64,000 nucleotides of DNA from Candidatus Woesearchaeota archaeon (GCA_016235495.1 JACRKH010000021.1:14725-78724); one strand, 5' to 3'. Positions 8,654 through 51,126 are shown, numbered from the stretch's first letter. The notes: generated from the letters alone by a model not told the origin. Numbers and translations: made by a program.

Positions 8654-9418
8654 ATGAAAGTCGATAAATCTATTCTAAGGGAAATTGATAGGAAGCTTGG
8701 GTACATTAAAGAGAAAGAAGGTTCTGCCTATTTTAATTTAGCCTTTAATAGAAGAAGACAGTTTCTCCGTGCACTTGCAAACTTTCATTCTTCTGCAATA
8801 GAACATCCTGTAGAATCAAGTCTTAGCCTCAAAAAAGGGAGAAGATCACATGAAGCAAGAAAAATCAAAGAAGCAGCAAAAGTTATTCAAAGCGCTTGGC
8901 TTGCTTCAATGAGTTACACAGATATTTTTAATCCAGATATGGTAAAGGCAATGAATTACATGATTCAAAATAACACTCCAAATCCTCCAAAGAACAAATT
9001 AGGTGCTTTCCGTCAGGCAAGAGTAACCTTAGGCTTAAATTTTACCCCTCCTAATTATGTCAAAATACCAGAACTGATGGATTCACTCTATAGAAGAATT
9101 CAAACACAATACGAAGGTGCTGCTCATCCTATTGAAGCATCAATTGAAGCACACTTTGGTATTGCAACAATCCAACCTTTTGGAGATGGAAATAAAAGAA
9201 CTGCTCGTCTGTATCAAGCAAGAATCCTTGATTCAAAAGCTCTCCCCATTCCATACATTCCAGTAGGAGAAAGACTTTTTTACCTTAAACTATTGGAAGA
9301 AGCAGGTTACGCAGCATCAGTACATAAAGATAGAGCCTCTACAGAAGAAACGAACTTCGCGAATTACCTTGCTTCTAGAGTCAATGTTTCTCTAGAATTT
9401 ATTTTGGGAAGAAAATAA
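8654..9418 (+). CDS. Fic/Doc family protein with a non-canonical motif QPFGDGNKRTAR (His replaced by Gln; the NKR is Doc-like)
   Basis: The motif at aa 174-185 (nt 9173-9208) matches HxFx(D/N)GNKR of Doc apart from the CAA (Gln) codon in place of His. Its position in the protein fits a Fic fold. Confidence 0.55.
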   Translation: MKVDKSILREIDRKLGYIKEKEGSAYFNLAFNRRRQFLRALANFHSSAIEHPVESSLSLKKGRRSHEARKIKEAAKVIQSAWLASMSYTDIFNPDMVKAMNYMIQNNTPNPPKNKLGAFRQARVTLGLNFTPPNYVKIPELMDSLYRRIQTQYEGAAHPIEASIEAHFGIATIQPFGDGNKRTARLYQARILDSKALPIPYIPVGERLFYLKLLEEAGYAASVHKDRASTEETNFANYLASRVNVSLEFILGRK

Positions 9419-9420
9419 TC

Positions 9421-9633
9421 TTACTTCACAGCTTCTCTGATATCAGAGGATTTAATGGTCTTTCTCCCAGCATGGTGCGCAAGTCGCAGCGCTTTCTCAC
9501 CAATAACCTGAGCATATTCTTCAAGAACTTCTCTCAGCTTTTCCTTGCCATCATCGGCAACTCTCTCTGCTCCTGCCTTTTTCAGAAGTTTTTCCATCGC
9601 AGCTGCAGGTAAGATTGCTTTTCTCGGAGCCAT
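9421..9633 (-). CDS. Archaeal histone (HMfB-like histone fold), 70 aa
   Basis: MAPRKAILPAAAMEKLLKKAGAERVADDGKEKLREVLEEYAQVIGEKALRLAHHAGRKTIKSSDIREAVK closely matches the archaeal histone consensus (AGAERVSDDA...HAGRKTIK.EDI). I chose the internal Met (M54) of the track ORF as the start. Confidence 0.85.
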   Translation of the reverse strand: MAPRKAILPAAAMEKLLKKAGAERVADDGKEKLREVLEEYAQVIGEKALRLAHHAGRKTIKSSDIREAVK

Positions 9634-9650
9634 AACTCTTTCAAGAGCAT

Positions 9651-9660
9651 AAATATATTT
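9651..9660 (-). promoter_or_regulatory. TATA box (aaatatattt) about 20 nt upstream of the histone ATG, implying a leaderless transcript
   Basis: The sequence motif and spacing. Confidence 0.4.
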
Positions 9661-9902
9661 AAATCCTCCTATTAAACCTATATACTCGAGAATACACAAT
9701 AACGAAATCTTTATAAACAGCCTAATTTTTCTCCAAGGACATGAAAATGCAAACAAAGAATTGCATTTAATACTTAACTTGCGAGAGTTCACACAAAGTG
9801 TCGAACACAGGACAAAGGGTCTTGTTTCTCAAAAAGGCGAGTGCAGGTTCGACGTCTCTAAACCTGCTGTCTGAATAAGACAATTACCGAGTACTGCAAT
9901 AT

Positions 9903-26496: not shown

Positions 26497-29385
26497 ATGG
26501 ATGCATTCCTAGAGTTCTATTCGAGAAAAGAGATACAGGAAGCAATACTTTCTATTTGTGAAGATAGAGAAGTCGCCCCTCGATATAATCAAGGATTCGG
26601 CAGAAGGCCGGATATTATTCAGTATCCAGGGGATATTCTAGAGATGGCAAAAAAAGGTGCGACATCCTTTCACATATCTGAAGAGCGCTGGAATAGTCCT
26701 TTGGATCTCAAGCCAGGCATGGCAAAGAAAGATCTTGATGAAAATAGAAAAGGTTGGGATCTTTGCCTTCCTGATTTTGAGAAGATTCATATTATTGAAG
26801 ATGGCCACCTTAAACAGGTTCAAATTGATTATTTAAATAAATTTAAAGGCAAACAAATAGGGGAAGGGGAGTATCTTTTAAATAAAGACATAAAAATTCT
26901 AAGCCTTAACCCTAAAGATTATAAAATCCAACTTGAGAAAGTTACAAAATTCTATATACGAGAGAAAAGACCCCAAGAAAAAGTATTTAAATTAACAGTC
27001 GAAGATGGGAGAATAGCATGGGTAAGCGAAGATCATCCTTTACTGGTTTTCACAAAGGAAGGAATGAAAGAAAAAGTTGCAAAGAGAATAACTTCTGAAG
27101 ATTATCTTATTATAAGCACAAAAATCCCTTCTCAATTCAAATCCCAAGAATATAACCTATTAGATGAAATTTACAAAAAGAAGGAAAGATTTTCTTATAT
27201 GGTTGGGAAAACAATCTTAGTGAACAAATTTTTAATTAAAAACAACAAAAATAATAAGCTGCAAATAAAATCAACAATATCAAAGTATCTTGGTAAGCGG
27301 GGAATACCTATTAATTTTTTTCCTCTTTCAATAAAAAAGCAAAACCTTAGCATAGGAATGAGGCATTGTAAGAATTTTATACCTTCTAGAATAGACTTGA
27401 CGAGGGATTTTGGGTTCTTAGTAGGTATATATCTTGCTGAGGCAGCATCAGGAGGAACTCGTATAGAATTTGCATTGCATCTTAAAGAAAGAGATATAGC
27501 TGAAAGAATAATTTCGATAATTAATAAAACTTTTTCTACACATTTCCTAGCAGAATCTTGTATAGAGCAAAATCAAGAAAATGGCATTCGTGTGAGGATA
27601 AATAGCAAATTATTAGATACAATATTTGTAGACATATTGGCTCTTGGGAAATTAGCATACCACAAAAAAATTCCTTCATGGATATTCAACGCAAATACCT
27701 CTTTTATAGATGGTTTACTTGAGGGTTATTTTGTTGGAGGTGGGCATTCAAGACTAGACTCCAATGGAAAAAGCCTTACCTTTAGCGTTATAAGTGTGAG
27801 CAAGGATCTAATAGAAGGAATATCTTTATTACTCCAAATCAAAGGCATAAATTATAAGATAAGAAAAGATCTCCCTCCTCAAAAAGGAGGTAAAGGTAAG
27901 CATAAAAGGAATATCCTTGCTATTTGTGGAGAAAAAGATATATCCTTGTTATATCAATCTTGCCCAGAGATATTCTTAAGAAAAAGATTATATCTCACTA
28001 GAAAGATTATAAATCATCCTTCATTACATGAAAAGTATCCTCCATTTTTTGATAAAACTAAAGTTACCTATAAATATCTAAAAAATGAAGTTCAAAGAGT
28101 TAACTTTCTTAGAGCTATACGCACTAAGGCAAGGGTAAATGAAAAACTAGCAAAAATAGCCGCAAATTCACATCTATCTAAGATTATGAAGAGCAATGTT
28201 TTTCCCATTCGTTGTAAGAAAATTGAAGAGTTTTCCTATAAAGGGCTTCTCTATGATATCCAAACAGAAAAGAATCATAATTTTCTTCAAGGTGATGGAA
28301 TTTTTTCACATAATTGTTTAGACATAGACACCCCTTATTGGGATTATGCAAAATGGACTGCATACTACCTTGTTGAAGCCCTCAAATTTCATGATGTTAA
28401 AAGTATTTCTATAAAATTCTCTGGAGGAAAAGGCTGGCATATTCTTGTTCCCTTTGAAGCATTCCCTGATGAAGTGAATGGAATAAAAACAAAAAATCTT
28501 TTTCCTGAAGGCCCAAGAATAATTACTGCATACCTAGAAAATATGATTCGTGAAATGCTCACAAATAAAATTTTAGAGAAAGAAGACATCGCCACAATTT
28601 GCCAAAAGACAGGCAAAAAAAGAGCAGAGATAATGAAAGACAACAAATTTGATCCCTTTTCGCTCATAGAAATAGACACAGTGCTTATTTCAAACAGGCA
28701 TTTATTTCGTGCACCATTCTCCATGCATGAAAAATCAGGATTAGTTTCTATTCCCATACTTCTAAATCATATTCTCGATTTTGACAAACGAGAAGCAGAG
28801 CCAAAGAATGTAAAAAAAATTCTTCCCTTCTTGGAAAGAGAAAAAGTAAAAGGCGATGCAAAAAGCCTCATTATCCAAGCATTCGATTGGTGGGGGAAAG
28901 CCCATGCAAAGACAGGTCCAGATAGTATAGCAGCAGAAAAACAAGAATATTATCTTCCCAAGTCCGCAATAATCGAGGCCTATTTCCCTGAATGCATAAA
29001 GAAAATGCTTTCCAATAACCTCGCAGATGGAAAAAAGCGTGCATTATTTGTTTTAGTAAATTTCCTAAACCACATGGGCTGGAGAGAAGAAGATATAAAA
29101 AAGCGCCTTCTAGACTGGAATAGCAAACAGCCTAGTCCTCTACCTCCTTCCTACATTCTTGGACAGCTTTCCTGGCACAAAAAACAGAAAGAGCATATTT
29201 TGCCGCCAAACTGCTCAAATAAAGCATATTATCAGGATATGGGCCTAGCTTGTCCTCCTGCAGTCTGTGCAAGGTACAAAAACCCTGTGAATTGTGCAGT
29301 CCAAACAGAACGCAGAGCAAGAGAAGCAGAGGCTCGGCAGAAGCCCAAAAAAGAGTTGAAAAAGCCTGAAACCAAGCCTTTATAA
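26497..29385 (+). CDS. priS: DNA primase small subunit PriS interrupted by a large intein, with a Cys-rich C-terminal extension
   Basis: Extein motifs GATSFHISEERW, LCLDIDTPYWDYAKW (DxD) and FSGGKGWHILVPFEAF (SGGRGYH). The 517-aa insertion carries intein blocks. Confidence 0.8.
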   Translation: MDAFLEFYSRKEIQEAILSICEDREVAPRYNQGFGRRPDIIQYPGDILEMAKKGATSFHISEERWNSPLDLKPGMAKKDLDENRKGWDLCLPDFEKIHIIEDGHLKQVQIDYLNKFKGKQIGEGEYLLNKDIKILSLNPKDYKIQLEKVTKFYIREKRPQEKVFKLTVEDGRIAWVSEDHPLLVFTKEGMKEKVAKRITSEDYLIISTKIPSQFKSQEYNLLDEIYKKKERFSYMVGKTILVNKFLIKNNKNNKLQIKSTISKYLGKRGIPINFFPLSIKKQNLSIGMRHCKNFIPSRIDLTRDFGFLVGIYLAEAASGGTRIEFALHLKERDIAERIISIINKTFSTHFLAESCIEQNQENGIRVRINSKLLDTIFVDILALGKLAYHKKIPSWIFNANTSFIDGLLEGYFVGGGHSRLDSNGKSLTFSVISVSKDLIEGISLLLQIKGINYKIRKDLPPQKGGKGKHKRNILAICGEKDISLLYQSCPEIFLRKRLYLTRKIINHPSLHEKYPPFFDKTKVTYKYLKNEVQRVNFLRAIRTKARVNEKLAKIAANSHLSKIMKSNVFPIRCKKIEEFSYKGLLYDIQTEKNHNFLQGDGIFSHNCLDIDTPYWDYAKWTAYYLVEALKFHDVKSISIKFSGGKGWHILVPFEAFPDEVNGIKTKNLFPEGPRIITAYLENMIREMLTNKILEKEDIATICQKTGKKRAEIMKDNKFDPFSLIEIDTVLISNRHLFRAPFSMHEKSGLVSIPILLNHILDFDKREAEPKNVKKILPFLEREKVKGDAKSLIIQAFDWWGKAHAKTGPDSIAAEKQEYYLPKSAIIEAYFPECIKKMLSNNLADGKKRALFVLVNFLNHMGWREEDIKKRLLDWNSKQPSPLPPSYILGQLSWHKKQKEHILPPNCSNKAYYQDMGLACPPAVCARYKNPVNCAVQTERRAREAEARQKPKKELKKPETKPL
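26764..28314 (+). mobile_element. Intein (517 aa) with a LAGLIDADG homing-endonuclease domain, inside priS
   Basis: It starts at Cys (tgc, 26764) and ends at HN (aat, 28312-28314) followed by Cys. Block B is VSEDHPLLVF. LAGLIDADG-like motifs are LVGIYLAEAASGG and IDGLLEGYFVGGGHS. The terminal block is LLYDIQTEKNHNF...GIFSHN. Confidence 0.8.
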
Positions 29386-29400
29386 AGAGGCTCTATTCGA

Positions 29401-29736
29401 ATGTATAATATGACATTTGATGATAATACAGCAAGGAGAGCACTGCAGATAGTTTCTCCAGAGATAACACTTGAAGGAACAGAAACTGCAGAAAAAGTAG
29501 AATCATTGCTAGAAAAAGCAATAGAAAATAACTTTTCTCATCTTTTAAGAATCTGGAAACAAAGAGGAGAAGTTTCCTTGATGTCTCTCATTTACAATCT
29601 TCCTGCGAGCGATAGATTTAGAGAATCAGTAGAAGAATACGAAAATGTAGTCTATGCAGCCGCAGCTGTAGTACTTCAAAGAAATGATTTTACCTATAAT
29701 CAAGAAAGATCAACCTGGTATTACAACAAAGCTTAA
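29401..29736 (+). CDS. Hypothetical protein, 111 aa
   Basis: An open frame between priS and the Cas4-like gene. Confidence 0.3.
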   Translation: MYNMTFDDNTARRALQIVSPEITLEGTETAEKVESLLEKAIENNFSHLLRIWKQRGEVSLMSLIYNLPASDRFRESVEEYENVVYAAAAVVLQRNDFTYNQERSTWYYNKA

Positions 29737-29760: not shown

Positions 29761-30582
29761 ATGATTAGTGTCACAGACCTTACTTCGTACATGTATTGTT
29801 CGAGAAAATTATACTTTACAAAAGTCTTAAGAATTCGTGAAAAACCAAAAGAAAAAACAATCAAAGGAACCATTAAGCATCAAGTCTATGATTTGGTAGG
29901 AAGAGAGAACAAAAATATTATTCTGGATTTTACTGCAAAAGAATCTCTGGAAGAATTAGAAATGCGTTTTCGTCGAGTATACTATAAAACATTAATGTTC
30001 TGCATTCAGAGAGCAAAATCGGACTTAGAAGCACAGAAGCTAAAAATGCTTGAACTCTATCAGGAACTCTGGCCATTTTTTTTAGAAGAAGCAAAAGAAC
30101 AAAGTTCTTTCTTTTTTCAATTTGCACAGGAAAAAAATTGTTATGGAGAACAGCTTTGGTTAGCACTTCCCAAAGCAGTATCTGAGCTAAGAATTGTTTC
30201 AGAAAATCTTCGCTTGGTTGGTGTAGTGGATAAACTAGAACTGGAAAAAGATTTCACTCCTGTGGAAATAAAAACAGGAAAAGCACCTAAAGATGGAGTC
30301 TGGAAAGATAACATGGTGCAGCTTGGTGCCTACATGCTTCTTCTCAGCGAACATTATGGCAAAGAAATTAAGGAAGGCTTTATCGACTATAAAGCGATCA
30401 ACGAACGCAGAAAAATCACCATGAATCCTTTTCTCAAAGATGAAATTATAGCATTGATAGACCGAGTCCACATACTTCTCACACAAAAGGAACTTCCTGA
30501 AAAAACCAAAGATGAATGGAAGTGCAAAATATGTGGGATTCGAGAGGAATGCTTCAAAGAAGAAAAGCCAAAAGCTTTATAA
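29761..30582 (+). CDS. Cas4-like / DUF83 RecB-family nuclease with a 4Fe-4S cluster
   Basis: An N-terminal Cys (YMYCSRKLYF) plus a C-terminal C-x2-C-x5-C (CKICGIREEC). Nuclease motifs are VDKLE...VEIKTGK and QLGAYMLLL. Confidence 0.7.
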   Translation: MISVTDLTSYMYCSRKLYFTKVLRIREKPKEKTIKGTIKHQVYDLVGRENKNIILDFTAKESLEELEMRFRRVYYKTLMFCIQRAKSDLEAQKLKMLELYQELWPFFLEEAKEQSSFFFQFAQEKNCYGEQLWLALPKAVSELRIVSENLRLVGVVDKLELEKDFTPVEIKTGKAPKDGVWKDNMVQLGAYMLLLSEHYGKEIKEGFIDYKAINERRKITMNPFLKDEIIALIDRVHILLTQKELPEKTKDEWKCKICGIREECFKEEKPKAL

Positions 30583-30584
30583 AT
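30575..30584 (+). promoter_or_regulatory. TATA box (ctttataaat) about 22 nt upstream of the 5S rRNA
   Basis: Identical to the TATA motif upstream of tRNA-Tyr. Confidence 0.5.
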
Positions 30585-30603
30585 GCCAGATTAATTCTCT
30601 AAG

Positions 30604-30724
30604 CTGTGAGCGGCCATAGTGGCCTGGTACCACCTGTTCCCATTTCGAACACAGAAGTGAAATAGGCCGACGTTCCGTTGCTGTACTGCATTAAATGCGG
30701 GAAACTCGGTTCGCTGCTCCACCT
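30604..30724 (+). rRNA. rrf: 5S ribosomal RNA, stand-alone
   Basis: GCGGCCATAGTGGCC...CCATTTCGAACACAGAAGTGAAATAGGCCGAC...GTACTGCATTAAATGCGGGAAACTCGG matches the 5S consensus (loop C/helix III motif, GTACTG). The 5' and 3' ends pair (gagcggc/gctgctc). A T-run terminator follows. Confidence 0.8.
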
Positions 30725-30789
30725 TTTATTTTTTTAACTGGTACTCAAGCATAGCAATTCTTTTAAGTATTCTTTCTCCAAACAAAGAA

Positions 30790-31986
30790 ATGCTCTTCGC
30801 ACATTTCTCAGATTGCCATGTAGGTGGATGGAAAGAGGAAAAACTCAAAGATTTGAATATGCAATGTTTTAAGCGTGCAATTGCTTTGGTCATTGAAAAG
30901 CAAGTTGACTTCCTTCTCATCTCTGGAGACCTTTTCAACACAGCCCTGCCACAGATAGACTATATAAAAGAATGCACTTCTGAATTAAAAAAACTCAAAG
31001 ATAAAAACATTCCGGTCTATATGATTGCAGGCTCTCACGATTACTCTCCTAGTGGAAAAACTATGTTAGATGTTCTCGAAAAAGCAGGGCTCATTATGAA
31101 TGTCATGCAGTTCAATGAAGATGGCACATTAAAATTCACTGAAGATAAATCTGGAGCAAAAATTACAGGCATGCTCGGAAAGAAAGGAGGCTTAGAAATC
31201 AGTGACTATGAAACACTAAACACAAAAAGTCTCGAAGAAGAACAAGGCTTCAAAATTTTTATGTTCCACACTGCTATCAATGAATTCAAACCGCAGGGTC
31301 TCGAAGATATGCCAGGTGCAGCCCTTGCGACACTGCCCAACAACTTCCATTATTACGCAGGCGGGCATGTGCACTACATTTTCCAAAAGAATTTCGGGCA
31401 AGGAGTCCTCACTTTTCCCGGCGCACTCTTTCCAAACAACTTCAAAGAAATGGAAGAGTGGCAGAACGGCGGTGTCTACTTTGTCAATGAAAAAACAGAA
31501 TGGAACTATGTTCCCATTAGATTAAAAGAAGTGGTTACATTTAGTCTCGATGTATCAAATCTCAGTCCTGAACAAGCCACAGCAAAAATAATTGAAGAAA
31601 TAAAAAAGAAAGACACGAAAGATGCAATTGTAACCCTCCGTGTGAAAGGAGAGATTGATGGAAAGACTGCTGATCTGAACTTTAAAGAGATTATGGAACA
31701 TTTACAAGGGGCTTATTTTGTATTAAAGAACACAGCAAAGCTGCAGTCAAAATCAACACAAGAAATAACTATGAAGCTTGGGACAATAGAAGAGATCGAG
31801 CAAGAAATTCTTCAAGAATCAAAACAAGAAATCCCACTTAAAGATTTTTCGAAAGAAAAAGAAGATGCTTTTACCATAGATCTCATACAACTTCTCAACA
31901 AAGAAAAGGAAGATGGAGAAAAAGTAGCAGATTTTGAAAAGAGAATAATCTCGGAAGCAGTGAAGGTGCTGGAAATTGAGAATTAA
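30790..31986 (+). CDS. mre11: Mre11 DNA double-strand-break repair nuclease
   Basis: Phosphoesterase motifs HFSDCHVG, GDLF and GSHD. Confidence 0.85.
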   Translation: MLFAHFSDCHVGGWKEEKLKDLNMQCFKRAIALVIEKQVDFLLISGDLFNTALPQIDYIKECTSELKKLKDKNIPVYMIAGSHDYSPSGKTMLDVLEKAGLIMNVMQFNEDGTLKFTEDKSGAKITGMLGKKGGLEISDYETLNTKSLEEEQGFKIFMFHTAINEFKPQGLEDMPGAALATLPNNFHYYAGGHVHYIFQKNFGQGVLTFPGALFPNNFKEMEEWQNGGVYFVNEKTEWNYVPIRLKEVVTFSLDVSNLSPEQATAKIIEEIKKKDTKDAIVTLRVKGEIDGKTADLNFKEIMEHLQGAYFVLKNTAKLQSKSTQEITMKLGTIEEIEQEILQESKQEIPLKDFSKEKEDAFTIDLIQLLNKEKEDGEKVADFEKRIISEAVKVLEIEN

Positions 31987-34027
31987 CAAAATTAAACTAG
32001 AGAATATTCGAAGTTATGTCTCTCAAGAAATTATTTTTCCCGAGGGGAAAGTACTGCTTTGGGGGAACATAGGCTCTGGCAAGAGCAGTATTCTCCACGC
32101 AATAGACTTTGCTCTCTTCGGTCTGCAGCGCTCTGAACTCGCAGGTGCATCACTCTTAAGAAATGGCACTGATGAAGGCACTGTAGAACTCTTCTTCTCC
32201 ATTGACGAAAAGGACTATGTGATAAAAAGAACCCTAAAAAGATCAAAATCTGCAGTCACACAAGATGCAGGATATATTATTCGCAATGGAATAAAGGAAG
32301 AAAAGACAGCAATAGAGCTCAAACAAATAGTTTTAGAATTACTCCATTATCCCAAAGACCTCATTACCAAAAACAAGACTCTTATTTATCGTTACACAGT
32401 CTACACACCGCAGGAGGAAATGAAAACAATCCTTCTTGGAAGCAAGGAAGAAAGACTGGACACTTTAAGAAAAGTATTTGCCGTGGACAAGTACAAAAGA
32501 ATCAAAGAAAATGTCAAAATTATTGTTTCAGATATGAAAGAAAAGAAAAAACTCTATGAAGGCGCAACAGTAGACATACAAGAGAAAATTATCGATAAAG
32601 AAAAAAAATCCCAAGAAAAAATTATCCTTGAGAAAAAACTCACAGAAATACTCATCCCATTAGAAGAACTAAGCAAAATGGTTCAGACAAAAAAAGAAGA
32701 GCTTATACTCCTTGAGGGAAAACGAGAAGAGATTCTCAAAGAAAAACGAGAACTATTTCTTTGGGAAATCGAGTGCAAAAATAAACTAAAAGAAAAAGAA
32801 GAAACAGAACAAAAAATATCTCTTCTCCAACAAGAAATAGTTATTTTAGAGAAGGAAAACCTAGAAACTCCTGATGTAAAAGAGAGTCTTTCAAAAGGAA
32901 ATGAATTGCTCACAGGAAAAGAAAAAGAGCTTCGTGAAATTCTTAACAAAATCCAAGATTGTAAAACCAGGAAAGCTCATGCACTTCTTATCAAACAAAA
33001 GGTAGAGAGTCTTGAGAAATGCCCCACATGTCAGCAGAAAGTTTCGCCTGAACACAAGCATAATATTATCGAAAAAACAAATGCAGAAACGCAAAATCAT
33101 GATAGTGAAATAGCCATTCTCGAAAAGAATCAGCAAACTAGAGAAGAAGAAATGAGAGATCTCCGGGGAGAAATAGATTTACTTCGGAAAAAAGAAAGCG
33201 AAGCAGCAATAAACCTAATGAAAAAGCAGCAACTGCTTAAAAAACGGGGAGAGTGTTTTGAGCTTATGGAAAAACTAACAGGAAATAAAAAATCCCAAGA
33301 GGAACTGAACACAAAAATAGCGGAAGCAAAGGAAAAACAGAAAGATACAGAAACATTAGAAATTTTATACATTGCAAACAAACAAGAAGCAGAACAGCTC
33401 CAGAACAAATATCACACACTCAACCTAGAAAAGGCAACAGTAACTGCAACACTGAACCATTATACACAGACCCTCAATCAATTAACAGAGGAAATTCAAA
33501 AGAAACTAATATTAAGAGAGAAAAAAGAATACCTCAATAAAATTCAATTCTGGTTAACAGATTCCTTCACGCCCTTGTTAGATACAATGGAAAAAAACAT
33601 CCTCTTCAAAGTGCATGCAGAATTCAACAGCCTCTTTGAAAAATGGTTTTCTATACTTATCGACAACCAAAGCCTGCAAATGAGTTTGGATGAAGACTAC
33701 TCCCCAAAAATTCTGCAGAATGACTATGATATCGAGTATGAATATCTTTCTGGTGGAGAGAAAACAGCAGGTGCCTTGGCATACAGATTAGCATTGAACC
33801 AAGTTATTAACAACATGAACACAGGAATAAAAACGAATGACCTCTTAATATTAGACGAACCAACAGATGGCTTTAGTCACGAACAATTAGACCGATTAAA
33901 GATTCTCATGGAAGAAATAAACATTCCACAAATAATTCTTGTCAGTCATGAGGCGCAGATAGAATGCTTTGCTGATCACATTCTTCGCTTTGAAAAACAA
34001 AACCATATCACAAGCCTTGTATCCTAA
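31976..34027 (+). CDS. rad50: Rad50 ATPase
   Basis: Walker A (GNIGSGKSS), long coiled-coil, zinc hook (CPTCQQ), signature (SGGEKTAGALA) and Walker B (LILDEP). It overlaps mre11 by 11 nt. Confidence 0.85.
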   Translation: MRINKIKLENIRSYVSQEIIFPEGKVLLWGNIGSGKSSILHAIDFALFGLQRSELAGASLLRNGTDEGTVELFFSIDEKDYVIKRTLKRSKSAVTQDAGYIIRNGIKEEKTAIELKQIVLELLHYPKDLITKNKTLIYRYTVYTPQEEMKTILLGSKEERLDTLRKVFAVDKYKRIKENVKIIVSDMKEKKKLYEGATVDIQEKIIDKEKKSQEKIILEKKLTEILIPLEELSKMVQTKKEELILLEGKREEILKEKRELFLWEIECKNKLKEKEETEQKISLLQQEIVILEKENLETPDVKESLSKGNELLTGKEKELREILNKIQDCKTRKAHALLIKQKVESLEKCPTCQQKVSPEHKHNIIEKTNAETQNHDSEIAILEKNQQTREEEMRDLRGEIDLLRKKESEAAINLMKKQQLLKKRGECFELMEKLTGNKKSQEELNTKIAEAKEKQKDTETLEILYIANKQEAEQLQNKYHTLNLEKATVTATLNHYTQTLNQLTEEIQKKLILREKKEYLNKIQFWLTDSFTPLLDTMEKNILFKVHAEFNSLFEKWFSILIDNQSLQMSLDEDYSPKILQNDYDIEYEYLSGGEKTAGALAYRLALNQVINNMNTGIKTNDLLILDEPTDGFSHEQLDRLKILMEEINIPQIILVSHEAQIECFADHILRFEKQNHITSLVS

Positions 34028-34081: not shown

Positions 34082-35545
34082 ATGAAAAGAGGCATATTCA
34101 TAGTTCTACTCGTAGTAGTACTCTGTTCTGCAATCACACTGGCAGAAGAAGGCATATCTATCTCAGAAATCAACGCATCAAAACAAGTTGAGCCGGGGCA
34201 GACTGCAGTCTTCAACCTTCTTCTCACAAATGATGGGTCAAAGGAATACACTGTGCAGATACAAGGCGACCCCTATGTTGGTCTTCCATCCAGTGACTTT
34301 GATTACCTCTTTATCAACCCAACCATTATTACTCTCACTGGCCACGAACAAAAAGAAATTACAGTATCCACAAAACTAAAATCAACAGTTCTCCGTCAGA
34401 AAAGATACAAAACATATGTGACTGCAACTGCACTCAATCATGATGGGGTTTCAGCAACATATGATTTAGAAGTCTTCGCAATGCCTCCGCAGAGTGCAAT
34501 AACCATTTCTCTTCCAAGCCCGGAAACAAAAGTAGGCCCTGGTGGAATATTCGCATTAAAAATGACTTTAAAGAACAATCTGCAGGACAACTTGCACAAT
34601 ATTGATGTTCATGTGACCAGTGACCTGTTTAACGACCAGCAGACCATAGAACTCTTTAAAGGCCAGTCAAAAGATTTAGAATTTGCTCTTCCCATCTCCA
34701 AAGATGCAGCGCCAAAATCCTACTCCTACAATGTAAGAATTTATTTTGACAAAGAACTGCAGGGAAGCAATCAAGGAACAATTACTGTCGATGAGAATCT
34801 AAATGTTTCACAGCACACAGAAACAAGTTCTGGTTTCTTGTACACAGAACGAAAAACAACATTCATTAACAATGGAAATGTAGAAGTCAGCGATTCCTAT
34901 TTTGAGGAGCCATCAACAATAGCAGCCTGGTTCACATCCTATTCCTTGGATCCAAACTATGATGATGAGCTGGGAAGGCCAACATGGACCTTTACTATTT
35001 CCCCAAGCCAGTCCATAACCATTACAAGCAAAGAAGACTATAGATCATTGCTTTTTGGTATCATTGCACTTATACTCTTGGGAATCATTGCATATTATCT
35101 TTTCATAAAAAGAGTAACAGTAAGAAAAGAAGTATTCAAACTCAAATACAGCGTTGATGGGGTGTCAGATTTCAAAGTGCTCTTGCATGTGAAAAACAGT
35201 ACAAACAAACCAATAAAAGATGTTACTATCATTGATGTACTTCCTAAACTCATCCAGCCGAAGACCAACTTTGGAACCTTGCATCCAAGTGGCATTGAGC
35301 GCGGGGACAAAGGGATTCGTATGATGTGGAAGATTCCAGAGCTGGTAAATGGTGAAGAAAGAGTAATCTCCTATGAAGTAGAAGCACAGTTCAAAGTGAT
35401 TGGAGAAATTACCCTGCCAAATGCAACAGTCAAATACAAGAACAAATCTGGAAGAATCATCCATGTTCGTTCTAATAGTGTCAACTTCCTCTCTGGCATT
35501 GCCGAGACAGTAAAGAAAAGATTTAGGAAAAAGCAGAAAGAATAA
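34082..35545 (+). CDS. Secreted/surface protein with a signal peptide, beta-rich ectodomain, one TM helix and a C-terminal domain
   Basis: A signal peptide (MKRGIFIVLLVVVLCSAITLA) and an internal TM (LLFGIIALILLGIIAYYLFI). Confidence 0.5.
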   Translation: MKRGIFIVLLVVVLCSAITLAEEGISISEINASKQVEPGQTAVFNLLLTNDGSKEYTVQIQGDPYVGLPSSDFDYLFINPTIITLTGHEQKEITVSTKLKSTVLRQKRYKTYVTATALNHDGVSATYDLEVFAMPPQSAITISLPSPETKVGPGGIFALKMTLKNNLQDNLHNIDVHVTSDLFNDQQTIELFKGQSKDLEFALPISKDAAPKSYSYNVRIYFDKELQGSNQGTITVDENLNVSQHTETSSGFLYTERKTTFINNGNVEVSDSYFEEPSTIAAWFTSYSLDPNYDDELGRPTWTFTISPSQSITITSKEDYRSLLFGIIALILLGIIAYYLFIKRVTVRKEVFKLKYSVDGVSDFKVLLHVKNSTNKPIKDVTIIDVLPKLIQPKTNFGTLHPSGIERGDKGIRMMWKIPELVNGEERVISYEVEAQFKVIGEITLPNATVKYKNKSGRIIHVRSNSVNFLSGIAETVKKRFRKKQKE

Positions 35546-36149: not shown

Positions 36150-36275
36150 CCCCACGTAGCTTAATGGTTTGAGCACTTGGCTGTAGATAAATTCCCCTTT
36201 TGACACTGCAAAGCAGAGGATGAAATAAGGGTAGCTGAACCCGAGAGGTTCCTGGTTCGAGTCCGGGCGTGGGGA
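36150..36275 (+). tRNA. tRNA-Tyr (anticodon GTA) with a ~53-nt canonical-position intron (about 36188-36240)
   Basis: Acceptor ccccacg/cgtgggg (C1:G72, the archaeal Tyr identity pair), D-arm gctt..gagc, anticodon stem cttgg/ccgag with loop ctGTAga, T-arm cctgg-ttcgagt-ccggg, discriminator A. Confidence 0.7.
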
Positions 36276-37845: not shown

Positions 37846-39573
37846 ATGAAAAAGATTTCAGTCTTCATAATCACATGCTTCTTGCTTTCTGCAAGCTTTG
37901 CAAGTGCAAATGTACTGAGTAGCGGATGGAATTTTTTAATAACAGGATATGATGTTGTAGAGGAAAGCCCTGCGCCGAGTGGAGACACAGGAACAAGCCC
38001 TGTACCGAGTGACACGATAGCTCCACAGCCTTCTGTATCACAACCCGTTGCAGACCAACAACCCCAACAGCCAGATCAATCTCAACAGCCCCAGCAGTTT
38101 CAAGACCAAAATCAATGCCAGCCTGATCAACCATGTTTTCAAAATCAGCCTAGTCAATCCCAAGAGGGTCAACGGTTCCAGCAGCAAGATCAATCTCAAC
38201 AACCCCAGCAGTTTCAAGACCAAAGGGAATTTAATCAAGGTCAAGAGCAACTCATGCAATTTAATCAGCAAAGACAGCAGCAGCGGCAGAATTGTCCCTC
38301 TGAAGACCAAATAAATCAAATGATTTCTGGCTGTAACCAGCACGGAGGAAACTGGATAAGAAATACAGATCCAAGCGGGTGTACATTCATAGATTGTTCT
38401 TTTAGTGGTGGAAGTCAGCAAGGGCAATTCCAAGGAGCTCCGCAATTTAATCAGCAAGGCCAGTTTGCTCAGCAGCCAGCGCCAACTTGTCGTATAAATG
38501 GAGTAGAGACTCCAGGTGCATGCAGTAATTTTGGAGGAGGACAGCAGGGTCAGTTCCAAGGGGCTCCACAATTTGGCCAGCAAGATCCATTCAGTGGACA
38601 AGCATGTCAAAGCAAAGAGGAAGCAGATCAACAAGCACAAACCTGTGCACAAATAGGCGCACAGCCCATTGCCTCCCCAGGGCAGAATGGTTGTGCTCCG
38701 ATAATTACTTGTAGCCAGAGTGGAAAAGGCGGTTTAAGTTATGATCAATATCAACAAGGTCAACAAGCATTTGAGAGTGGACAAATAGATTCTGTGCAAG
38801 TTCTTGAGGCAATACTAAAAATGGATAGTTTAAAAATCCAAATAAGCAATACACAAAAACAAATGCAGGACATCGCAAATTATTATGAAAGTCAAGGTGA
38901 CTCCGCATCAGCAGCAAGCTACAACAATGCAGCAGACATATTGAGCCAAGTTGCATCAAAGATAGATGAACAGAAGCAAGTTCTGAAAGATGCAGTTTCT
39001 GCAGGGACATTGGATTATGAAACCATTTTCCAAATCAGGTCAGACTTACAATACTCTGTTGATGAACTTATGAACCAAGTAATAAGTGCACTTCTCGGCG
39101 TAGAATACACGGGAATAAGTGGGCAGGCAGGAGAGCTTGAATGTGGCAGCAATGGACTCTGCTTCCAGAATGATTTCAGAGAATGTGCAGCAGGTGCAAC
39201 CTTTAGTCCAGAATCAGGCATATCAATAACTATTTCCGGAGTAGGAAGTGATGATAGCTGTGGATTGCAGGTTTCTGGGCCATTTGGTCAAGCAACCTGT
39301 AATGTCCCTAATTACAGATTCGCACAGTTAAGCAAAGAGGCAATCATGCCCTACTGTGAAGGTTTGCCGGACATGAGTCAAGGACAAGACCAAAATCCTA
39401 GCGAGAATTTTCAAGAACAAGATTCATTCCAGCAGCAAGCTGAAGGAGTAGAGCCTGTAGAGCCTGTAGAACCAATACAGCCAGTAGAACCAGCACCACA
39501 GCCAGCAGAATCCATCTCCCAGGAGCCTACATCAACGCCAGCCCCTGAAGAAACAACACAAGGAGGAGCATAA
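37846..39573 (+). CDS. Secreted Gln/Pro-rich repeat protein with a Cys-containing C-terminal domain and a PVEP-repeat tail
   Basis: A signal peptide, repeated DQSQQPQQFQDQ and GGxQQGQFQGAPQF units, and PVEPVEPVEPIQPVEP at the C-terminus. Confidence 0.55.
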   Translation: MKKISVFIITCFLLSASFASANVLSSGWNFLITGYDVVEESPAPSGDTGTSPVPSDTIAPQPSVSQPVADQQPQQPDQSQQPQQFQDQNQCQPDQPCFQNQPSQSQEGQRFQQQDQSQQPQQFQDQREFNQGQEQLMQFNQQRQQQRQNCPSEDQINQMISGCNQHGGNWIRNTDPSGCTFIDCSFSGGSQQGQFQGAPQFNQQGQFAQQPAPTCRINGVETPGACSNFGGGQQGQFQGAPQFGQQDPFSGQACQSKEEADQQAQTCAQIGAQPIASPGQNGCAPIITCSQSGKGGLSYDQYQQGQQAFESGQIDSVQVLEAILKMDSLKIQISNTQKQMQDIANYYESQGDSASAASYNNAADILSQVASKIDEQKQVLKDAVSAGTLDYETIFQIRSDLQYSVDELMNQVISALLGVEYTGISGQAGELECGSNGLCFQNDFRECAAGATFSPESGISITISGVGSDDSCGLQVSGPFGQATCNVPNYRFAQLSKEAIMPYCEGLPDMSQGQDQNPSENFQEQDSFQQQAEGVEPVEPVEPIQPVEPAPQPAESISQEPTSTPAPEETTQGGA

Positions 39574-46116: not shown

Positions 46117-47034
46117 TTACTGCTGTACTATCTTAAATCCCACAGAATCAATATGTTCAAAGCCATAATCCAAGCGTATCCATCCATCATACTGCTTTTG
46201 ATTCCCAATCAACAAATTCGTACCAATATTTTCAATCTTACAGCTTGCTTCAGCAGTATATTTTCCATTCTCAAATTTCAACATCCCGCAATCTTGTGCT
46301 TTGCCAAACAAAATCACAGAAAGAGGAAGAGAAACAGAAGTGATACTTGGATCCTGTGCCAATACGCAGGTATTACTTGTGGTATCAGCAACAGCAATCA
46401 ATCGCTCATTTGCTCGTGCAGACAAAGAAGCCTTTACACGCAGTCTCATCGTCACAGAATTGCTTCCCACAGCACTGAGTTCCTCAGTCACAGAATCAAT
46501 CTGCACTGGAGCGGAAGAAGAGCTTGTCAAAATATTTCCTGTACTTGTACAGCTGGTATCAGTAAAAGGATCCGTTGTAATGCAGGCGCTAAAAGGCCCA
46601 TAAGTAGTATAGGCATACCTGTTATATACAGTTGCATGCTGTTCTCCTGTTGCACTCTTTGAAACAAAAGCTGTAGGGAATTCTATCTGCGTACTCTGAA
46701 AGTTAGCATCATGGGTATCATCAAGAGTAATATAATAACTCTGGCAGTTGCAGCTGCCTAAACTTCCAAAAACATTTGCATCCAACCCAGTCTCACAGAC
46801 TTCAGCATTGGAAACGCTCGACTCTCCAGCATCAACAAGCCCTACAGAAACAAGCAGCCTGTCGCCGCCATACACATTTCCTTCATTGCTAGGAGAATTG
46901 ATAGTACTCACAACACCTGCACTGCCTCCACTGCAATCAGGAGGGCATGCAGTTGCAGTTTTCTCAGTCGTCTGCGTGCTGCATGCAGCAATAAAGAAGA
47001 TACTCAACAACAAAAGAAAGATTATTTTTTTCAT
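46117..47034 (-). CDS. Secreted lipoprotein, hypothetical
   Basis: A signal peptide plus a lipobox (IAAC). Confidence 0.45.
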   Translation of the reverse strand: MKKIIFLLLLSIFFIAACSTQTTEKTATACPPDCSGGSAGVVSTINSPSNEGNVYGGDRLLVSVGLVDAGESSVSNAEVCETGLDANVFGSLGSCNCQSYYITLDDTHDANFQSTQIEFPTAFVSKSATGEQHATVYNRYAYTTYGPFSACITTDPFTDTSCTSTGNILTSSSSAPVQIDSVTEELSAVGSNSVTMRLRVKASLSARANERLIAVADTTSNTCVLAQDPSITSVSLPLSVILFGKAQDCGMLKFENGKYTAEASCKIENIGTNLLIGNQKQYDGWIRLDYGFEHIDSVGFKIVQQ

Positions 47035-48317
47035 GCAACTAGACTCGCTCCTGCAGCTTTGATAGTAACAGTCTCTTGTTTCTTTTTCACTTTATATACA
47101 TACTTGGCATCGACTACATAGTTCTTCGTCACATAAGGTGCTTCAGCAAAAATATTTGGATCAATTGCCAGCCAGCACTGGAAGCTATGCAATCCTGCTT
47201 GCCCAAAGAAGGCATTATTTTGAACATAATTGACAAAGATTTGATCCTTAATTCCTGCATCAACATTATACTCTGTTCCATCTCTGCTTCTTCCTGTTTC
47301 AATGAAAGGACAGCTTAAACTTGGAGCGCCATTCAGATCGCTATTCAAAGTAACTCCCTCAGGAAGTGTTAAAGTTAAATCATCAAGGGAGCTAATGCTG
47401 CCGCCCCATTCATTCTTCAGTGTAATGCCTACAGTATTGTAAGAAGAAGTATCACCGCTTCGCACGACAACAGGCTGTCCCTCAGTTCCTTCCCCGCCAA
47501 CACCAATGCCTATGCTTATTGGTTCTCCATTATAGGTGGCAAGCAAGTCTTTTGCCTTGACATTCAGATTATACGCATCAAAGAAATCTTTCGTACCTAA
47601 TTGATCAGCAACAGTGCCTGGGATCATATACACAGGAATGCTTGCATCCTTTGTTTCAGTTTGGAAAGAGAAACTTCCAAAAATGCTGTAAGGCCCATTT
47701 AAATCTGCAGTATCAGTCCCATGGATTCTGCAAAGAACACTTGTCCCTTTTCGTACAGTCATCTGTTCTGCAGGAATAATCTTTCCAAGAACTTCTACAT
47801 CTTTCGTTTTATTAAAACTGCAAAAGAAATCTGCAGTATAACTTACCCCGCTCGGAACATTGTCAAAAGAAATATCATACTTCAAATCAAAATCTTGCCC
47901 AGCAGGTATTTCTTGACCAGCAATAGAAGTAAATGCCTTAAGGTCGATGCCATTCTTCGTACTGGAAGTATTTATCTTGCTGGAAAAATAATCCCCTGAG
48001 CCAGTTGCAAAAATTTCTGCAAAGAAATTGCTAATAGGATCAAAAGCAAAACTCTTAATAAAATCCCATCCAGACTGCAGCGCTCTTTTCCCTGCATCAC
48101 TACTAAAATAGCCTAAAGCAAAAATTCCTCCAACAAGCAAAACAAAAATAACCGTGACAATCAGTAAAGTATTTTTCCCATGCTGTGCACCTGCTGCAGC
48201 ACCAGATCGTAAGGAATCATAAGTGCTATTTTTATTACTAGAAAGAATTTCTCCTCTTCTTTTGAAAGACAAATCTTGCAAAATTTTCCTGCGTGCAGAA
48301 GCCTTAAACCACCCCAT
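47031..48317 (-). CDS. Membrane-anchored extracellular protein, hypothetical
   Basis: An N-terminal TM after a short cytoplasmic segment. It overlaps the downstream lipoprotein gene by 4 nt. Confidence 0.45.
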   Translation of the reverse strand: MGWFKASARRKILQDLSFKRRGEILSSNKNSTYDSLRSGAAAGAQHGKNTLLIVTVIFVLLVGGIFALGYFSSDAGKRALQSGWDFIKSFAFDPISNFFAEIFATGSGDYFSSKINTSSTKNGIDLKAFTSIAGQEIPAGQDFDLKYDISFDNVPSGVSYTADFFCSFNKTKDVEVLGKIIPAEQMTVRKGTSVLCRIHGTDTADLNGPYSIFGSFSFQTETKDASIPVYMIPGTVADQLGTKDFFDAYNLNVKAKDLLATYNGEPISIGIGVGGEGTEGQPVVVRSGDTSSYNTVGITLKNEWGGSISSLDDLTLTLPEGVTLNSDLNGAPSLSCPFIETGRSRDGTEYNVDAGIKDQIFVNYVQNNAFFGQAGLHSFQCWLAIDPNIFAEAPYVTKNYVVDAKYVYKVKKKQETVTIKAAGASLVA

Positions 48318-48361
48318 AGGAAACAGATAAGCTTATGAATATTTAAATCTTTTTAGTAAGA

Positions 48362-48661
48362 ATGGTCTTAGATTTCTGTACAGAGGGTATTATTCGTTTA
48401 TTTGCAGTAATCTTAAGATTTGCTCTTACCCACTGGGGTTGGACAATTGTATTCATCATTGCAGTATACCTTGCAGCCAAACTTATCTCTAAATTGGGGT
48501 TGAAGATATTTGAATTTTCTGGAATAATGTTCATTGTATACTTCCCTATACTCATCATTCTCATGTTTAGTGCATTAATCCTCGGATTTTACATTGCATC
48601 ATGGTTTTCTGGAGCGCCAGTCTGTTCCCTAGTCGATGAATTCAGCCGCTGGTTCATATAG
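48362..48661 (+). CDS. Small 3-TM membrane protein
   Basis: Hydrophobicity. Confidence 0.3.
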   Translation: MVLDFCTEGIIRLFAVILRFALTHWGWTIVFIIAVYLAAKLISKLGLKIFEFSGIMFIVYFPILIILMFSALILGFYIASWFSGAPVCSLVDEFSRWFI

Positions 48662-48710
48662 ATATTCCAACATAACAAAACTTTAAATTTCCTTTCCTAT
48701 AGCAAAGAGT

Positions 48711-50159
48711 ATGAAATTGCTTTTCATCTGTCTATTTTCTCTATTTCTTGTAGCCTGCACAAGCCAAACAGAACAAGCAGACCCCTATGCCGCACAATTT
48801 AATTTTACCTATACCACTTCTGTATACAATCTCACCCTGGAGTATAACAACATAACGGACCCCTTCGCACAGGGTGACGCACTATTAATAGAAGCAAGAA
48901 TACACAACACCGATCCAAGAACAGCAATCCCTTACTACAAAAAAGCTCTACAAACAGCAAGCCCTGAAGAAAAGGCGCTGCTCTATGAAAGCATTGCATC
49001 GATTGAAAACAAAAGAGAATATTACTGGACTTCTTATTTTATTTGGAAACAGCTCGGCAATGATTTTCATGCACAAACAGATTGGTATCTGCTCTATGGC
49101 CTTGACCCTCCATACAAAGCAGATATATACGAACTACCTTCTCCTTATTTTGCAACCTCCAAGAATGCAACAGAAATCACAATAGGAGAAACATCATTCA
49201 CACTCAATAAAAGTGATATTCTTATCTCACAGGTAGATCGAGTGACGAGAGACTGGCTTTCTTCACAACTGCAAAACCCAGAAACAAATAATCTTTTAAC
49301 AGTATTCTCAGAAAAATATGATGTAGAAAATATTGGCTGGCATGAAGGAGGGAGAATAACACAGTACAAAAAAGAAACGAATCTCACACACATCCCAGCA
49401 ACAGGAACTTTAGTGAGAAAAATCAATGGAACATGGTATGCGGCAAATGAAAATGGAACATTCATGTTTGATGTGCCTATAGACAAGGTAGAATACCCTA
49501 CAACAAGATTCTTCAATGAAAATCTTGGAATGATTATTGATACGCATGGAGTAAACATGCTCGTAGAACAGGCTATCAATGACAATGCCACAGTAGTCAT
49601 GGCCTGCTGTGACCATATTGGAAAAATAAAAGCAGCATTATATCTCAATGAAAGAGGAATAAAAGTCATTTGCAATACGGATAAATACCTCCCTCTTGCT
49701 TTGGGGCAGACAAATACAACACTTGGCTCAGCACCATTTTATCCTCGGGGAAACACACTTCTTTTTGGGAATCAGTCCATAAATATAAGTCTCAATGAGA
49801 AGATTATTGTACTGAATGCAACAGAAAAATATGGGCTTAGCTACTATGCAACACCAACTATTTACTTTACAACATTGCAAAAGAGAACTTTACTGCCATT
49901 AGATATGTATTATATCAATATAGACAATTACAATCAAATGCAAAAAGTAGTGAACAAAGCACACGAAGAAAATGCTTCAGTCATCGCAGCACGAGTCTAC
50001 AATGAAGATGATTATAGTGTTCTAAGCGCATGGTTGCAGGAAAATGAAAGCAATAGGCTCATACTCTTCCACTCAGAAGCATACCCTTATGGTTATTTAC
50101 TTCTAAGAAATTACCCTAAACAAATTACTTTTGATGATATTATGCCAAAATTTAAGTAA
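48711..50159 (+). CDS. Secreted lipoprotein, hypothetical, 482 aa
   Basis: A signal peptide plus a lipobox (VACTSQ). Confidence 0.45.
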   Translation: MKLLFICLFSLFLVACTSQTEQADPYAAQFNFTYTTSVYNLTLEYNNITDPFAQGDALLIEARIHNTDPRTAIPYYKKALQTASPEEKALLYESIASIENKREYYWTSYFIWKQLGNDFHAQTDWYLLYGLDPPYKADIYELPSPYFATSKNATEITIGETSFTLNKSDILISQVDRVTRDWLSSQLQNPETNNLLTVFSEKYDVENIGWHEGGRITQYKKETNLTHIPATGTLVRKINGTWYAANENGTFMFDVPIDKVEYPTTRFFNENLGMIIDTHGVNMLVEQAINDNATVVMACCDHIGKIKAALYLNERGIKVICNTDKYLPLALGQTNTTLGSAPFYPRGNTLLFGNQSINISLNEKIIVLNATEKYGLSYYATPTIYFTTLQKRTLLPLDMYYINIDNYNQMQKVVNKAHEENASVIAARVYNEDDYSVLSAWLQENESNRLILFHSEAYPYGYLLLRNYPKQITFDDIMPKFK

Positions 50160-50205
50160 AGTTTAAATATAACAAACACTCCAAAAGATATATCAGGGCT
50201 CTAAA

Positions 50206-51126
50206 ATGAAAAAATTAATTTTCCTAACAATGTTGGTGTCGATGATTCTTCTTTCATCACTAAGTCTAGCATCAGAGCAATTTGATTGTAAGGAAACTGG
50301 TGATGTTGGGAATGACCCTCTCACAGATGGGAGTGTGACACTCACCAATGCAAGCGTGACAAATCGAATTGAATATGATTCCTGTTCCATAAATATAACC
50401 TTTGGGTATTCCTATAGGACGGAATATTCCTGTGATTCTAAAGATGTAAGAATAAAGAACTACTATTGTGATGGCTGTACAAACTCCTCTGTATGCGACA
50501 CTGCTATTGATACAATAACAAACTATGCAAGTGAAACTGATGGAGGAAATTATCCATTAATACCAGGAAGTCTTGCAAAGACAGTGCTTCTTACAACAAA
50601 CCCAAGCGGAAAAAGATATTCTACAAAGGAATTCATCTTTGATAAATGTTCCTCAGCAGAGAAATTAACAGAAGTTGCAATAGAGAAAACAGCGCTTATC
50701 AAAGGAAATTACACCTGTTCCTCAATAAACGCAAGCTATTCCTGCATAACAGGAACATGGGGTGGATTCTGTGGAACAGCCTGCACAAGCGATGCTGATT
50801 GTGAAATAGGCTCTTGCGACACAAATGCTAATTCAGTAACCAAAGGAAGCTGCCAAGGAGATGCAATAAGAGTTATAGAAGTTCCAAAAACAGCAACGGC
50901 ATGCACCATAGGCGGAACAGAATGTTCTTCAGGTGCAGTGTGCTCTGAAGAAACTCTAACCTGCGTAGCAGAACAGAATACAAACACTGAAAGTGCAACA
51001 ACAAGTACACCCAGTAAAGCAGACACCGAAACTTCAAGTTCTAGTTCCTCTGAGTCAAAAGAAGTATTTACGACAAGCACAGAAAGTTTCTGGACAAGAT
51101 TTTGGAACTGGTTGTTTGGAAAATAG
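50206..51126 (+). CDS. Secreted Cys-rich protein, hypothetical
   Basis: A signal peptide, many Cys residues and a Ser/Thr-rich tail. Confidence 0.45.
   Translation: MKKLIFLTMLVSMILLSSLSLASEQFDCKETGDVGNDPLTDGSVTLTNASVTNRIEYDSCSINITFGYSYRTEYSCDSKDVRIKNYYCDGCTNSSVCDTAIDTITNYASETDGGNYPLIPGSLAKTVLLTTNPSGKRYSTKEFIFDKCSSAEKLTEVAIEKTALIKGNYTCSSINASYSCITGTWGGFCGTACTSDADCEIGSCDTNANSVTKGSCQGDAIRVIEVPKTATACTIGGTECSSGAVCSEETLTCVAEQNTNTESATTSTPSKADTETSSSSSSESKEVFTTSTESFWTRFWNWLFGK

Follow-up and report, generated by a model that had tools for sequence, protein, structure and literature searches.

In a stretch of 64,000 nucleotides from a Candidatus Woesearchaeota genome (GCA_016235495.1, JACRKH010000021.1:14725-78724; the whole stretch is referred to here as the window), a gene for a Cas4-family nuclease, a 5S rRNA gene, mre11 and rad50 follow one another on the plus strand. 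Rather than a repair operon, this arrangement probably represents three, or possibly four, independent transcription units that came to lie together through the gene order of one lineage. A cas4-mre11-rad50 operon was rejected on the basis of synteny in 80 genomes and the conservation of putative promoter and terminator elements between the genes.

The nuclease gene (29761-30582, +; hereafter cas4) encodes a solo Cas4-family PD-(D/E)xK protein of 273 amino acids (aa), with predicted 4Fe-4S ligands and a helical insertion of ~100 aa. It is followed by the stand-alone 5S rRNA gene (30606-30722, +), by an archaeal-type mre11 of 398 aa (30790-31986, +; identified with PF00149 and NCBIfam) and by a rad50 of 683 aa with a TTG start codon and a CPTC zinc hook (31976-34027, +). 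On the 5' side, a small open reading frame (ORF) without Pfam or NCBIfam match, orf111 (29401-29736, +), lies between a primase gene and cas4, its stop codon 24 nucleotides (nt) from the cas4 start. On the 3' side, orf487 (34082-35545, +) encodes a secreted or membrane-anchored protein with weak DUF11 and choice-of-anchor matches. A first-pass annotation, made from the sequence alone, had given the order and coordinates of the four central genes, including an 11-nt overlap of rad50 with mre11, and gene calls, hidden Markov model (HMM) searches and Rfam reproduced them exactly. The overlap holds because gene boundaries called independently on the Logan contig of identical sequence, from sample SRR12113407, lie at the same coordinates.

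The linkage of cas4 to mre11 is confined to a single group of relatives. One genome per GTDB species was scanned, which gave 80 loci with a Cas4 relative, each from a separate assembly and 33-68% identical over the best-aligned segment, and the neighbourhood within 10 kb of each cas4 was searched with tblastn and nhmmer. Besides the window, whose own sequence is locus L001, the order orf124-prefoldin-primase-small ORF-cas4-5S-mre11-rad50-orf487 was found only in L002-L009, where Cas4 is at least 52% identical. In the remaining loci, no mre11, rad50 or 5S gene was detected within the same 10 kb, even with tblastn at E=1. Using nhmmer, an orthologous 5S gene was located 3' of cas4 only in L002-L004 and L006-L009 among the related loci. 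In a tree built from the Cas4 proteins by neighbour joining, the loci with linked mre11 group as a single clade, and this clade is collinear from prefoldin/primase to the gene after rad50. Because the linkage is restricted to one clade with a fully collinear block, it is best read as a single evolutionary event, and the adjacency thus carries little statistical weight. Rather than being kept across divergent lineages, it is found in one clade comprising 9 of the 80 species-level loci.

Even within this clade, the cas4-mre11 linkage is loose. Between zero and three unrelated ORFs, some of them on the minus strand, lie between the two genes, and only in the window and L006 does nothing but the 5S gene separate them. 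For example, a minus-strand gene separates cas4 from 5S in L002 and L003, while L003, L004, L007 and L008 carry an additional gene between 5S and mre11. In L009, three additional genes are found between cas4 and mre11, including a minus-strand gene of 496 aa. The small ORF on the other side of cas4 was considered as a conserved Cas4 partner and rejected, as it is clade-restricted, fast-evolving and sometimes duplicated. Its homologues occur only in L002-L007, in some cases as tandem duplicates (L002, L004, L005), and unrelated small ORFs take its place in L008 and L009. As an observation in its own right, orf111 defines a family of fast-evolving small proteins without known domains that is confined to the primase-cas4 interval of the linked clade.

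Motifs in the cas4-mre11 spacer also point to separate transcription. The 5S gene matches Rfam RF00001 over its full length, model positions 1-120, with 67.3 bits (gathering score 38; E 5e-12). A B recognition element (BRE)/TATA box read in the sequence, aaaagcTTTATAAAtg (30570-30585, +), is centred ~27 nt before the 5' end of the 5S gene and extends over the cas4 stop codon (30580-30582). A (G)AAAG(C/G)TTTATAAA box is equally spaced 5' of the 5S gene in all six alignable relatives (L003, L004, L006, L007, L008, L009). T-rich tracts follow the gene in seven of seven loci (the window and these six relatives); in the window, this is the oligo-T tract ttttattttttt (30724-30735, +), a probable archaeal terminator. 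A TATA-like box, caattcttttaagtatt (30756-30772, +), then lies ~25 nt 5' of the mre11 ATG. It is kept in the relatives, six of which have a 'ACAATAATnnATATAAA' box equally spaced from the mre11 start, whatever precedes it. From this box, mre11-rad50 is likely transcribed with a short leader or none.

Across the window, similar boxes were found 22-35 nt 5' of the start codons of most genes and of the 5' ends of both tRNAs. As such boxes are the rule here, it is indicated that each gene or overlapping pair has its own promoter and a leaderless or short-leader transcript. A scan for sigma-70 promoters and intrinsic terminators gave 6 promoter-like sites against 10.8 expected, and is uninformative for an archaeon.

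Because the conserved boxes and the T-tract intervene, cas4 (perhaps with orf111), 5S and mre11-rad50 are most likely separate transcription units. Co-transcription of cas4 with mre11-rad50 is not indicated, given that a predicted 5S promoter, the 5S gene itself, an oligo-T tract and the mre11 box stand between them. In the proposed arrangement, the first unit would be the gene of a vertically inherited solo-Cas4, a housekeeping Fe-S PD-(D/E)xK nuclease, with which orf111 may be co-transcribed. The second would be the 5S gene, transcribed from its own BRE/TATA promoter over the cas4 stop codon to an oligo-T terminator. The third would be a bicistronic unit in which rad50 is presumably co-transcribed with mre11 from the box upstream of the mre11 ATG, followed by the secreted-protein gene.

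Mre11 and Rad50 are themselves of the archaeal type, as judged by their motifs and overlap, with NCBIfam scores below the equivalog cut-offs. The best NCBIfam matches of Mre11 are the archaeal models Mre11_Sulfo and Mre11_Pyroc (E 2.5e-28), and its translation shows the phosphoesterase motifs DxH, GD, G(S)HD, H and GHxH. More than 3400 homologues were found, with 50-81% identity across Woesearchaeota; that of archaeon GW2011_AR17 is 81% identical. Rad50 best matches archaeal Rad50 models (E 2.3e-37), along with Rad50_zn_hook (E 7.8e-5), and its Walker A, LSGGE, Walker B and H-loop motifs are readable. The complex would recognise and trim DNA ends as in other archaea. At 683 aa (~680 in all Woesearchaeota relatives seen), Rad50 is short compared with the ~870-895 positions of the NCBIfam archaeal models, which implies a much shorter coiled coil.

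The overlapping mre11-rad50 pair also occurs on three long contigs from other Woesearchaeota, L084, L085 and L086, whose Mre11 proteins are 50-58% identical to that of the window. In all three, an orf487-like gene lies directly 3' of rad50 (L084 11901-13307; L085 11320-12732; L086 11206-12639), while the 5' neighbours of mre11 are unrelated to one another. Since these 5' neighbours vary, the conserved unit is mre11-rad50(-orf487) and not cas4-mre11-rad50. The closest approach is in L086, where a Cas4 of 254 aa is encoded 3.6 kb 5' of mre11, with four genes of mixed orientation between. Within the linked clade, orf487 orthologs follow rad50 in the loci that reach far enough (L003, L004, L006, L008, L009). 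The family comprises proteins of 470-490 aa with 25-45% identity, a signal peptide, a C-terminal membrane anchor and faint DUF11/CLIPPER and choice-of-anchor matches. It is part of the conserved neighbourhood and has no evident repair role. Its linkage to mre11-rad50 persists across Woesearchaeota.

The nuclease is a Cas4-family member by every family test applied (PF01930/TIGR00372/COG1468), namely HMM thresholds, cysteine ligands, RecB motifs and fold. It scores 64.2 bits against PF01930 Cas_Cas4 (cut-off 22.7), 103.4 bits against TIGR00372 cas4 (cut-off 65) and 54.9 bits against PF12705, and its N-terminus also matches a Dna2 model. The putative 4Fe-4S ligands are C13 and C255-x2-C258-x5-C264. 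In an alignment of 28 homologues, C13, C255 and C258 are invariant, as are the RecB/PD-(D/E)xK residues D157, E169, K171 and Y191 (motifs D, ExK and QxxxY), and Q187 is kept in at least 90% of sequences. An AlphaFold model built from the family alignment (predicted local distance difference test score, pLDDT, 91.3) has the Cas4 fold, with a PD-(D/E)xK core and a helical insertion of ~100 residues (residues ~30-135). In this model, the extra helices give the predicted Fe-S nuclease domain an architecture like that of the Dna2 nuclease. In a profile search of PDB sequences, CRISPR Cas4 came first (E 8e-14 to 2.5e-11), followed by Dna2 (E 2e-9), so that the protein is closer in sequence to the former. 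It also matches the ACE1 Cas4-family entries 9iac/9iab in structure. No SF1B helicase domain is present, as the 273 residues make up a nuclease domain alone, and in contrast to eukaryotic Dna2, whose nuclease domain is seen in PDB 5EAN, OB and RPA-binding regions are absent as well.

Such an architecture would fit a nuclease acting at free 5' single-stranded ends or flaps. The protein would bind its 4Fe-4S cluster through C13, C255, C258 and C264, while D157, E169 and K171 would serve metal-dependent cleavage. A flap or a free single-stranded 5' end could be threaded through the Dna2-like helical arch, and threading of this kind would make the protein a general 5'-end/flap nuclease in DNA replication and repair. 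Judging from the modelled fold, a role in 5'-end processing is plausible.

Outside the linked clade, the Cas4 ortholog has other neighbours. A PRC-barrel gene of 88 aa comes next on the cas4 strand in at least 45 other Woesearchaeales loci (e.g. L046 404-1225, 1342-1605), with the gene for the RFC small subunit as its immediate 3' neighbour in 31 of the 45. The median gaps are 83 nt between cas4 and the PRC-barrel gene and 53 nt between the latter and the RFC gene. A TyrRS/TrpRS-type synthetase gene lies 5' of cas4 on the opposite strand in these loci, and FEN1 is found a few genes 5' of cas4 in 13 of the loci. A more distant locus, L073 (36% identity), keeps the prefoldin-primase-cas4 order and has no mre11 nearby. 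The possibility that the mre11-linked Cas4 is a clade-specific paralog of the RFC-linked one was considered and is disfavoured, with none of the 80 loci having two copies, a count that rests on metagenome-assembled genomes (MAGs), which are incomplete. Orthology is favoured because no two-copy genome was found and because L073 shares the primase-cas4 position at such low identity.

These contexts raise the question of whether solo-Cas4 belongs to replication, as a flap nuclease of the Dna2 type without a helicase that takes part in Okazaki or primer processing, with primase, RFC and FEN1 as its true neighbours. Primase is found directly 5' of cas4 both in the linked clade and in L073, the RFC small subunit lies two genes 3' in 31-45 species, FEN1 is only a few genes off in 13 loci and the predicted fold is Dna2-like. 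However, these contexts are also mere conserved collinear blocks whose median gaps allow separate promoters, and they include unrelated neighbours such as TyrRS, peptidases and secreted proteins. No obvious PCNA-interaction motif was seen by eye in the C-terminal tails of the alignment, and involvement of an archaeal Cas4 in lagging-strand synthesis would be without experimental precedent. Overall, a dedicated replication role is decidedly improbable.

The absence of HerA, NurA and CRISPR-Cas components concerns the 64-kb window, in which Pfam and NCBIfam annotation spans essentially all genes. None of the annotated genes matches a HerA, NurA or Cas family, and the ORFs without a family match mostly resemble signal-peptide or lipoprotein genes. 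No CRISPR-like repeat array was found in the window or in 86 related loci totalling 1.29 Mb. A three-copy repeat in L004 was examined as a candidate array and rejected, as it is a coding tandem repeat of 45 nt. Thus, within the window, neither cas1/cas2 nor an array adjoins cas4, as would be expected of a CRISPR-associated Cas4. Likewise, nothing resembling a herA-mre11-rad50-nurA operon was recovered, with no HerA or NurA match in the window or within 8 kb of mre11-rad50 in L084, L085 and L086.

It could be argued from this that, in this reduced genome, solo-Cas4 is a dedicated 5'-3' resection nuclease working with Mre11-Rad50 in place of NurA (and HerA), its position reflecting the partnership. 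Characterised Cas4 proteins are 5'-3' single-stranded DNA exonucleases (PMC5704561), cas4 and mre11 are close in nine species-level genomes and within 3.6 kb in L086, and four Woesearchaeota contexts have no herA or nurA beside mre11-rad50. However, we regard this as unlikely. The adjacency goes back to one event within a fully collinear block, the spacer tolerates unrelated genes, and promoters and a terminator appear to separate the genes. At least 45 orthologs are found elsewhere, beside PRC-barrel and RFC small subunit genes, other Woesearchaeota keep mre11-rad50 with no adjoining cas4 and there is no evident helicase partner.

The phyletic patterns also fail to complement one another. Pyrococcus furiosus and P. 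horikoshii possess a HerA-NurA system. Both also have one solo-cas4 each in the genome table of Hudaiberdiev 2017, in which Haloferax volcanii has none and AR20, a complete Woesearchaeota genome, has no Cas4 entry of any kind (PMC5704561). In H. volcanii, mre11 and rad50 form an operon and neither HerA nor NurA is apparent (PMC2700283). As Pyrococcus has both nucleases and H. volcanii apparently neither, mutual replacement of solo-Cas4 and NurA is not suggested.

This bears on the first-pass annotation, which had proposed from gene order that Cas4 substitutes for NurA. That proposal is not supported in view of the one-clade linkage, the inserted genes, the apparently separate promoters and the non-complementary phyletic patterns. 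Its descriptive part fared better. The Fe-S signature and RecB motifs it had reported are borne out by the four cysteines and by D157, E169, K171 and Y191 across the 28 homologues, and the protein passes the family thresholds as a stand-alone Cas4 unconnected to CRISPR. Annotation and repeat search agree with its statements that HerA, NurA, cas genes and CRISPR are missing within 64 kb and that mre11-rad50 lacks flanking herA and nurA. The independent promoter it had assigned to the 5S gene is supported by a putative BRE/TATA box kept in seven loci.

A defence function has also been suggested for proteins of this kind. Solo-Cas4 would then be a nuclease that attacks mobile elements independently of CRISPR, a role put forward for some DPANN solo-Cas4 genes near restriction-modification genes. 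Several DPANN solo-Cas4 genes do have restriction-modification contexts, and viral capture of cas4 is frequent (PMC5704561). Moreover, ACE1 Cas4-family proteins, the source of the structural match to 9iac/9iab, act with Argonautes (PMC12094033). However, neither the window nor the 80 relatives have flanking defence genes, the neighbours being ribosomal-protein, translation, replication and repair genes. The gene also occurs in one copy, and its tree follows the synteny clades, as for a vertically inherited housekeeping gene. A defence role at this locus is highly improbable.

The comparative data indicate that the juxtaposition of cas4 and mre11-rad50 is incidental, although four points weigh against reading it as independent units brought together by lineage history. 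Firstly, all three contexts of the ortholog hold replication or repair genes (primase; mre11-rad50; the RFC small subunit with FEN1 nearby), which hints that the neighbourhoods are not random. Secondly, the clade-wide proximity of cas4 and mre11, in nine genomes and at 3.6 kb in L086, could reflect weak selection. Thirdly, the proposed transcription units are read from sequence motifs. Fourthly, the absence of HerA and NurA is established for the 64-kb window. A broader proposal is that woesearchaeal solo-Cas4 is a helicase-less Dna2-type 5'-end/flap nuclease which, in DPANN archaea without HerA-NurA, serves Mre11-Rad50 resection and/or the processing of Okazaki flaps. If so, its recurrent placement beside primase, RFC small subunit/FEN1 or mre11-rad50 would be the trace of a 5'-nuclease role. 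This proposal is rather unlikely, and independent, incidentally juxtaposed units remain the preferred explanation.

The locus is an ordinary one of a known kind. Solo-Cas4 in CRISPR-less DPANN archaea has already been published. Most DPANN, including Woesearchaeota, encode solo-Cas4 and not CRISPR-associated Cas4, with mainly vertical inheritance, and 'uncharacterized defense or repair functions' have been proposed for it (Hudaiberdiev 2017, PMC5704561). The window protein agrees with this group (COG1468/PF01930) in being a single-copy Fe-S nuclease with four cysteines and RecB motifs, encoded outside CRISPR-cas in a small DPANN genome. It comes from a Ca. Woesearchaeota MAG, there is one copy per genome across the 80 loci and the tree clades correspond to synteny classes. 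However, its subfamily is longer (~270 aa) through the helical insertion, hence the resemblance to the Dna2 nuclease domain, and PMC5704561 does not name Mre11-Rad50, primase or RFC genes among the neighbours of archaeal solo-Cas4.

Other known systems are similar only in part. The herA-mre11-rad50-nurA operon has been described for (hyper)thermophiles (PMC7690668), and the window shares its overlapping, archaeal-type mre11-rad50 pair. In contrast to that operon, herA and nurA are absent from the 64 kb and from beside mre11-rad50 in three other Woesearchaeota, and the flanking nuclease has a PD-(D/E)xK and not a NurA fold and probably belongs to a separate transcription unit. The operon of H. 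volcanii (PMC2700283) likewise has two genes and no apparent HerA or NurA. It differs from the window, which has a secreted-protein gene after rad50 and an unusually short Rad50 (~680 aa). For a mesophile, mre11-rad50 without herA and nurA is not unusual. Tree labels in Hudaiberdiev 2017 (PMC5704561) also point to a Cas4-UvrD/SbcC-SbcD system in Fusobacteria, where a Cas4-like gene adjoins SbcD-SbcC, the bacterial homologues of Mre11-Rad50. However, that protein is of the bacterial pfam12705 type and is fused or linked to a UvrD helicase, whereas the one in the window is of the archaeal PF01930 type and has no helicase.

Searches of the literature, DPANN comparative papers included, found no statement on HerA or NurA in DPANN or Woesearchaeota and no paper naming both Woesearchaeota and Mre11, and the juxtaposition of cas4 with mre11-rad50 seems to be unreported. 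Had a cas4-mre11-rad50 operon been conserved, it would have pointed directly to how mesophilic and DPANN archaea perform long-range 5'-strand resection without HerA-NurA and to what the very widespread solo-Cas4 does in the cell, and the comparative data show none. What the window adds is a weak hint, consisting of a predicted Dna2-like fold and repeated proximity to replication and repair genes.

The rest of the window includes, among others, a ribosomal-protein superoperon, SecY, aminoacyl-tRNA synthetases, an intein-containing primase, glycosyltransferases, ScpB and an intein-containing eRF1. The primase gene (26497-29385, +; 962 aa) carries an intein with a LAGLIDADG homing-endonuclease domain. 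Its counterparts in L002-L009 are intein-free and 366-449 aa long, and that of the distant L073 again has 957 aa. In the eRF1 gene (58698-60185, -), a mini-intein with Intein_splicing, Hint and PT-HINT matches lies between eRF1 domains 1 and 2. An Rfam tRNA match of 126 nt (36150-36275, +) was missed by ARAGORN and is probably an intron-containing tRNA gene.

Several smaller features were also observed. Signal-peptide or lipoprotein-like genes without family match, probably encoding cell-surface proteins, are found at 46117-51126 and 37846-39573, the latter gene having Q/P-rich repeats of 36-78 nt. A PIN/RHH toxin-antitoxin pair is located at ~43.6-44.1 kb of the window. Just 5' of the ribosomal-protein operon, a Fic-domain gene (8654-9418, +) adjoins an archaeal histone-fold gene (9421-9792, -).

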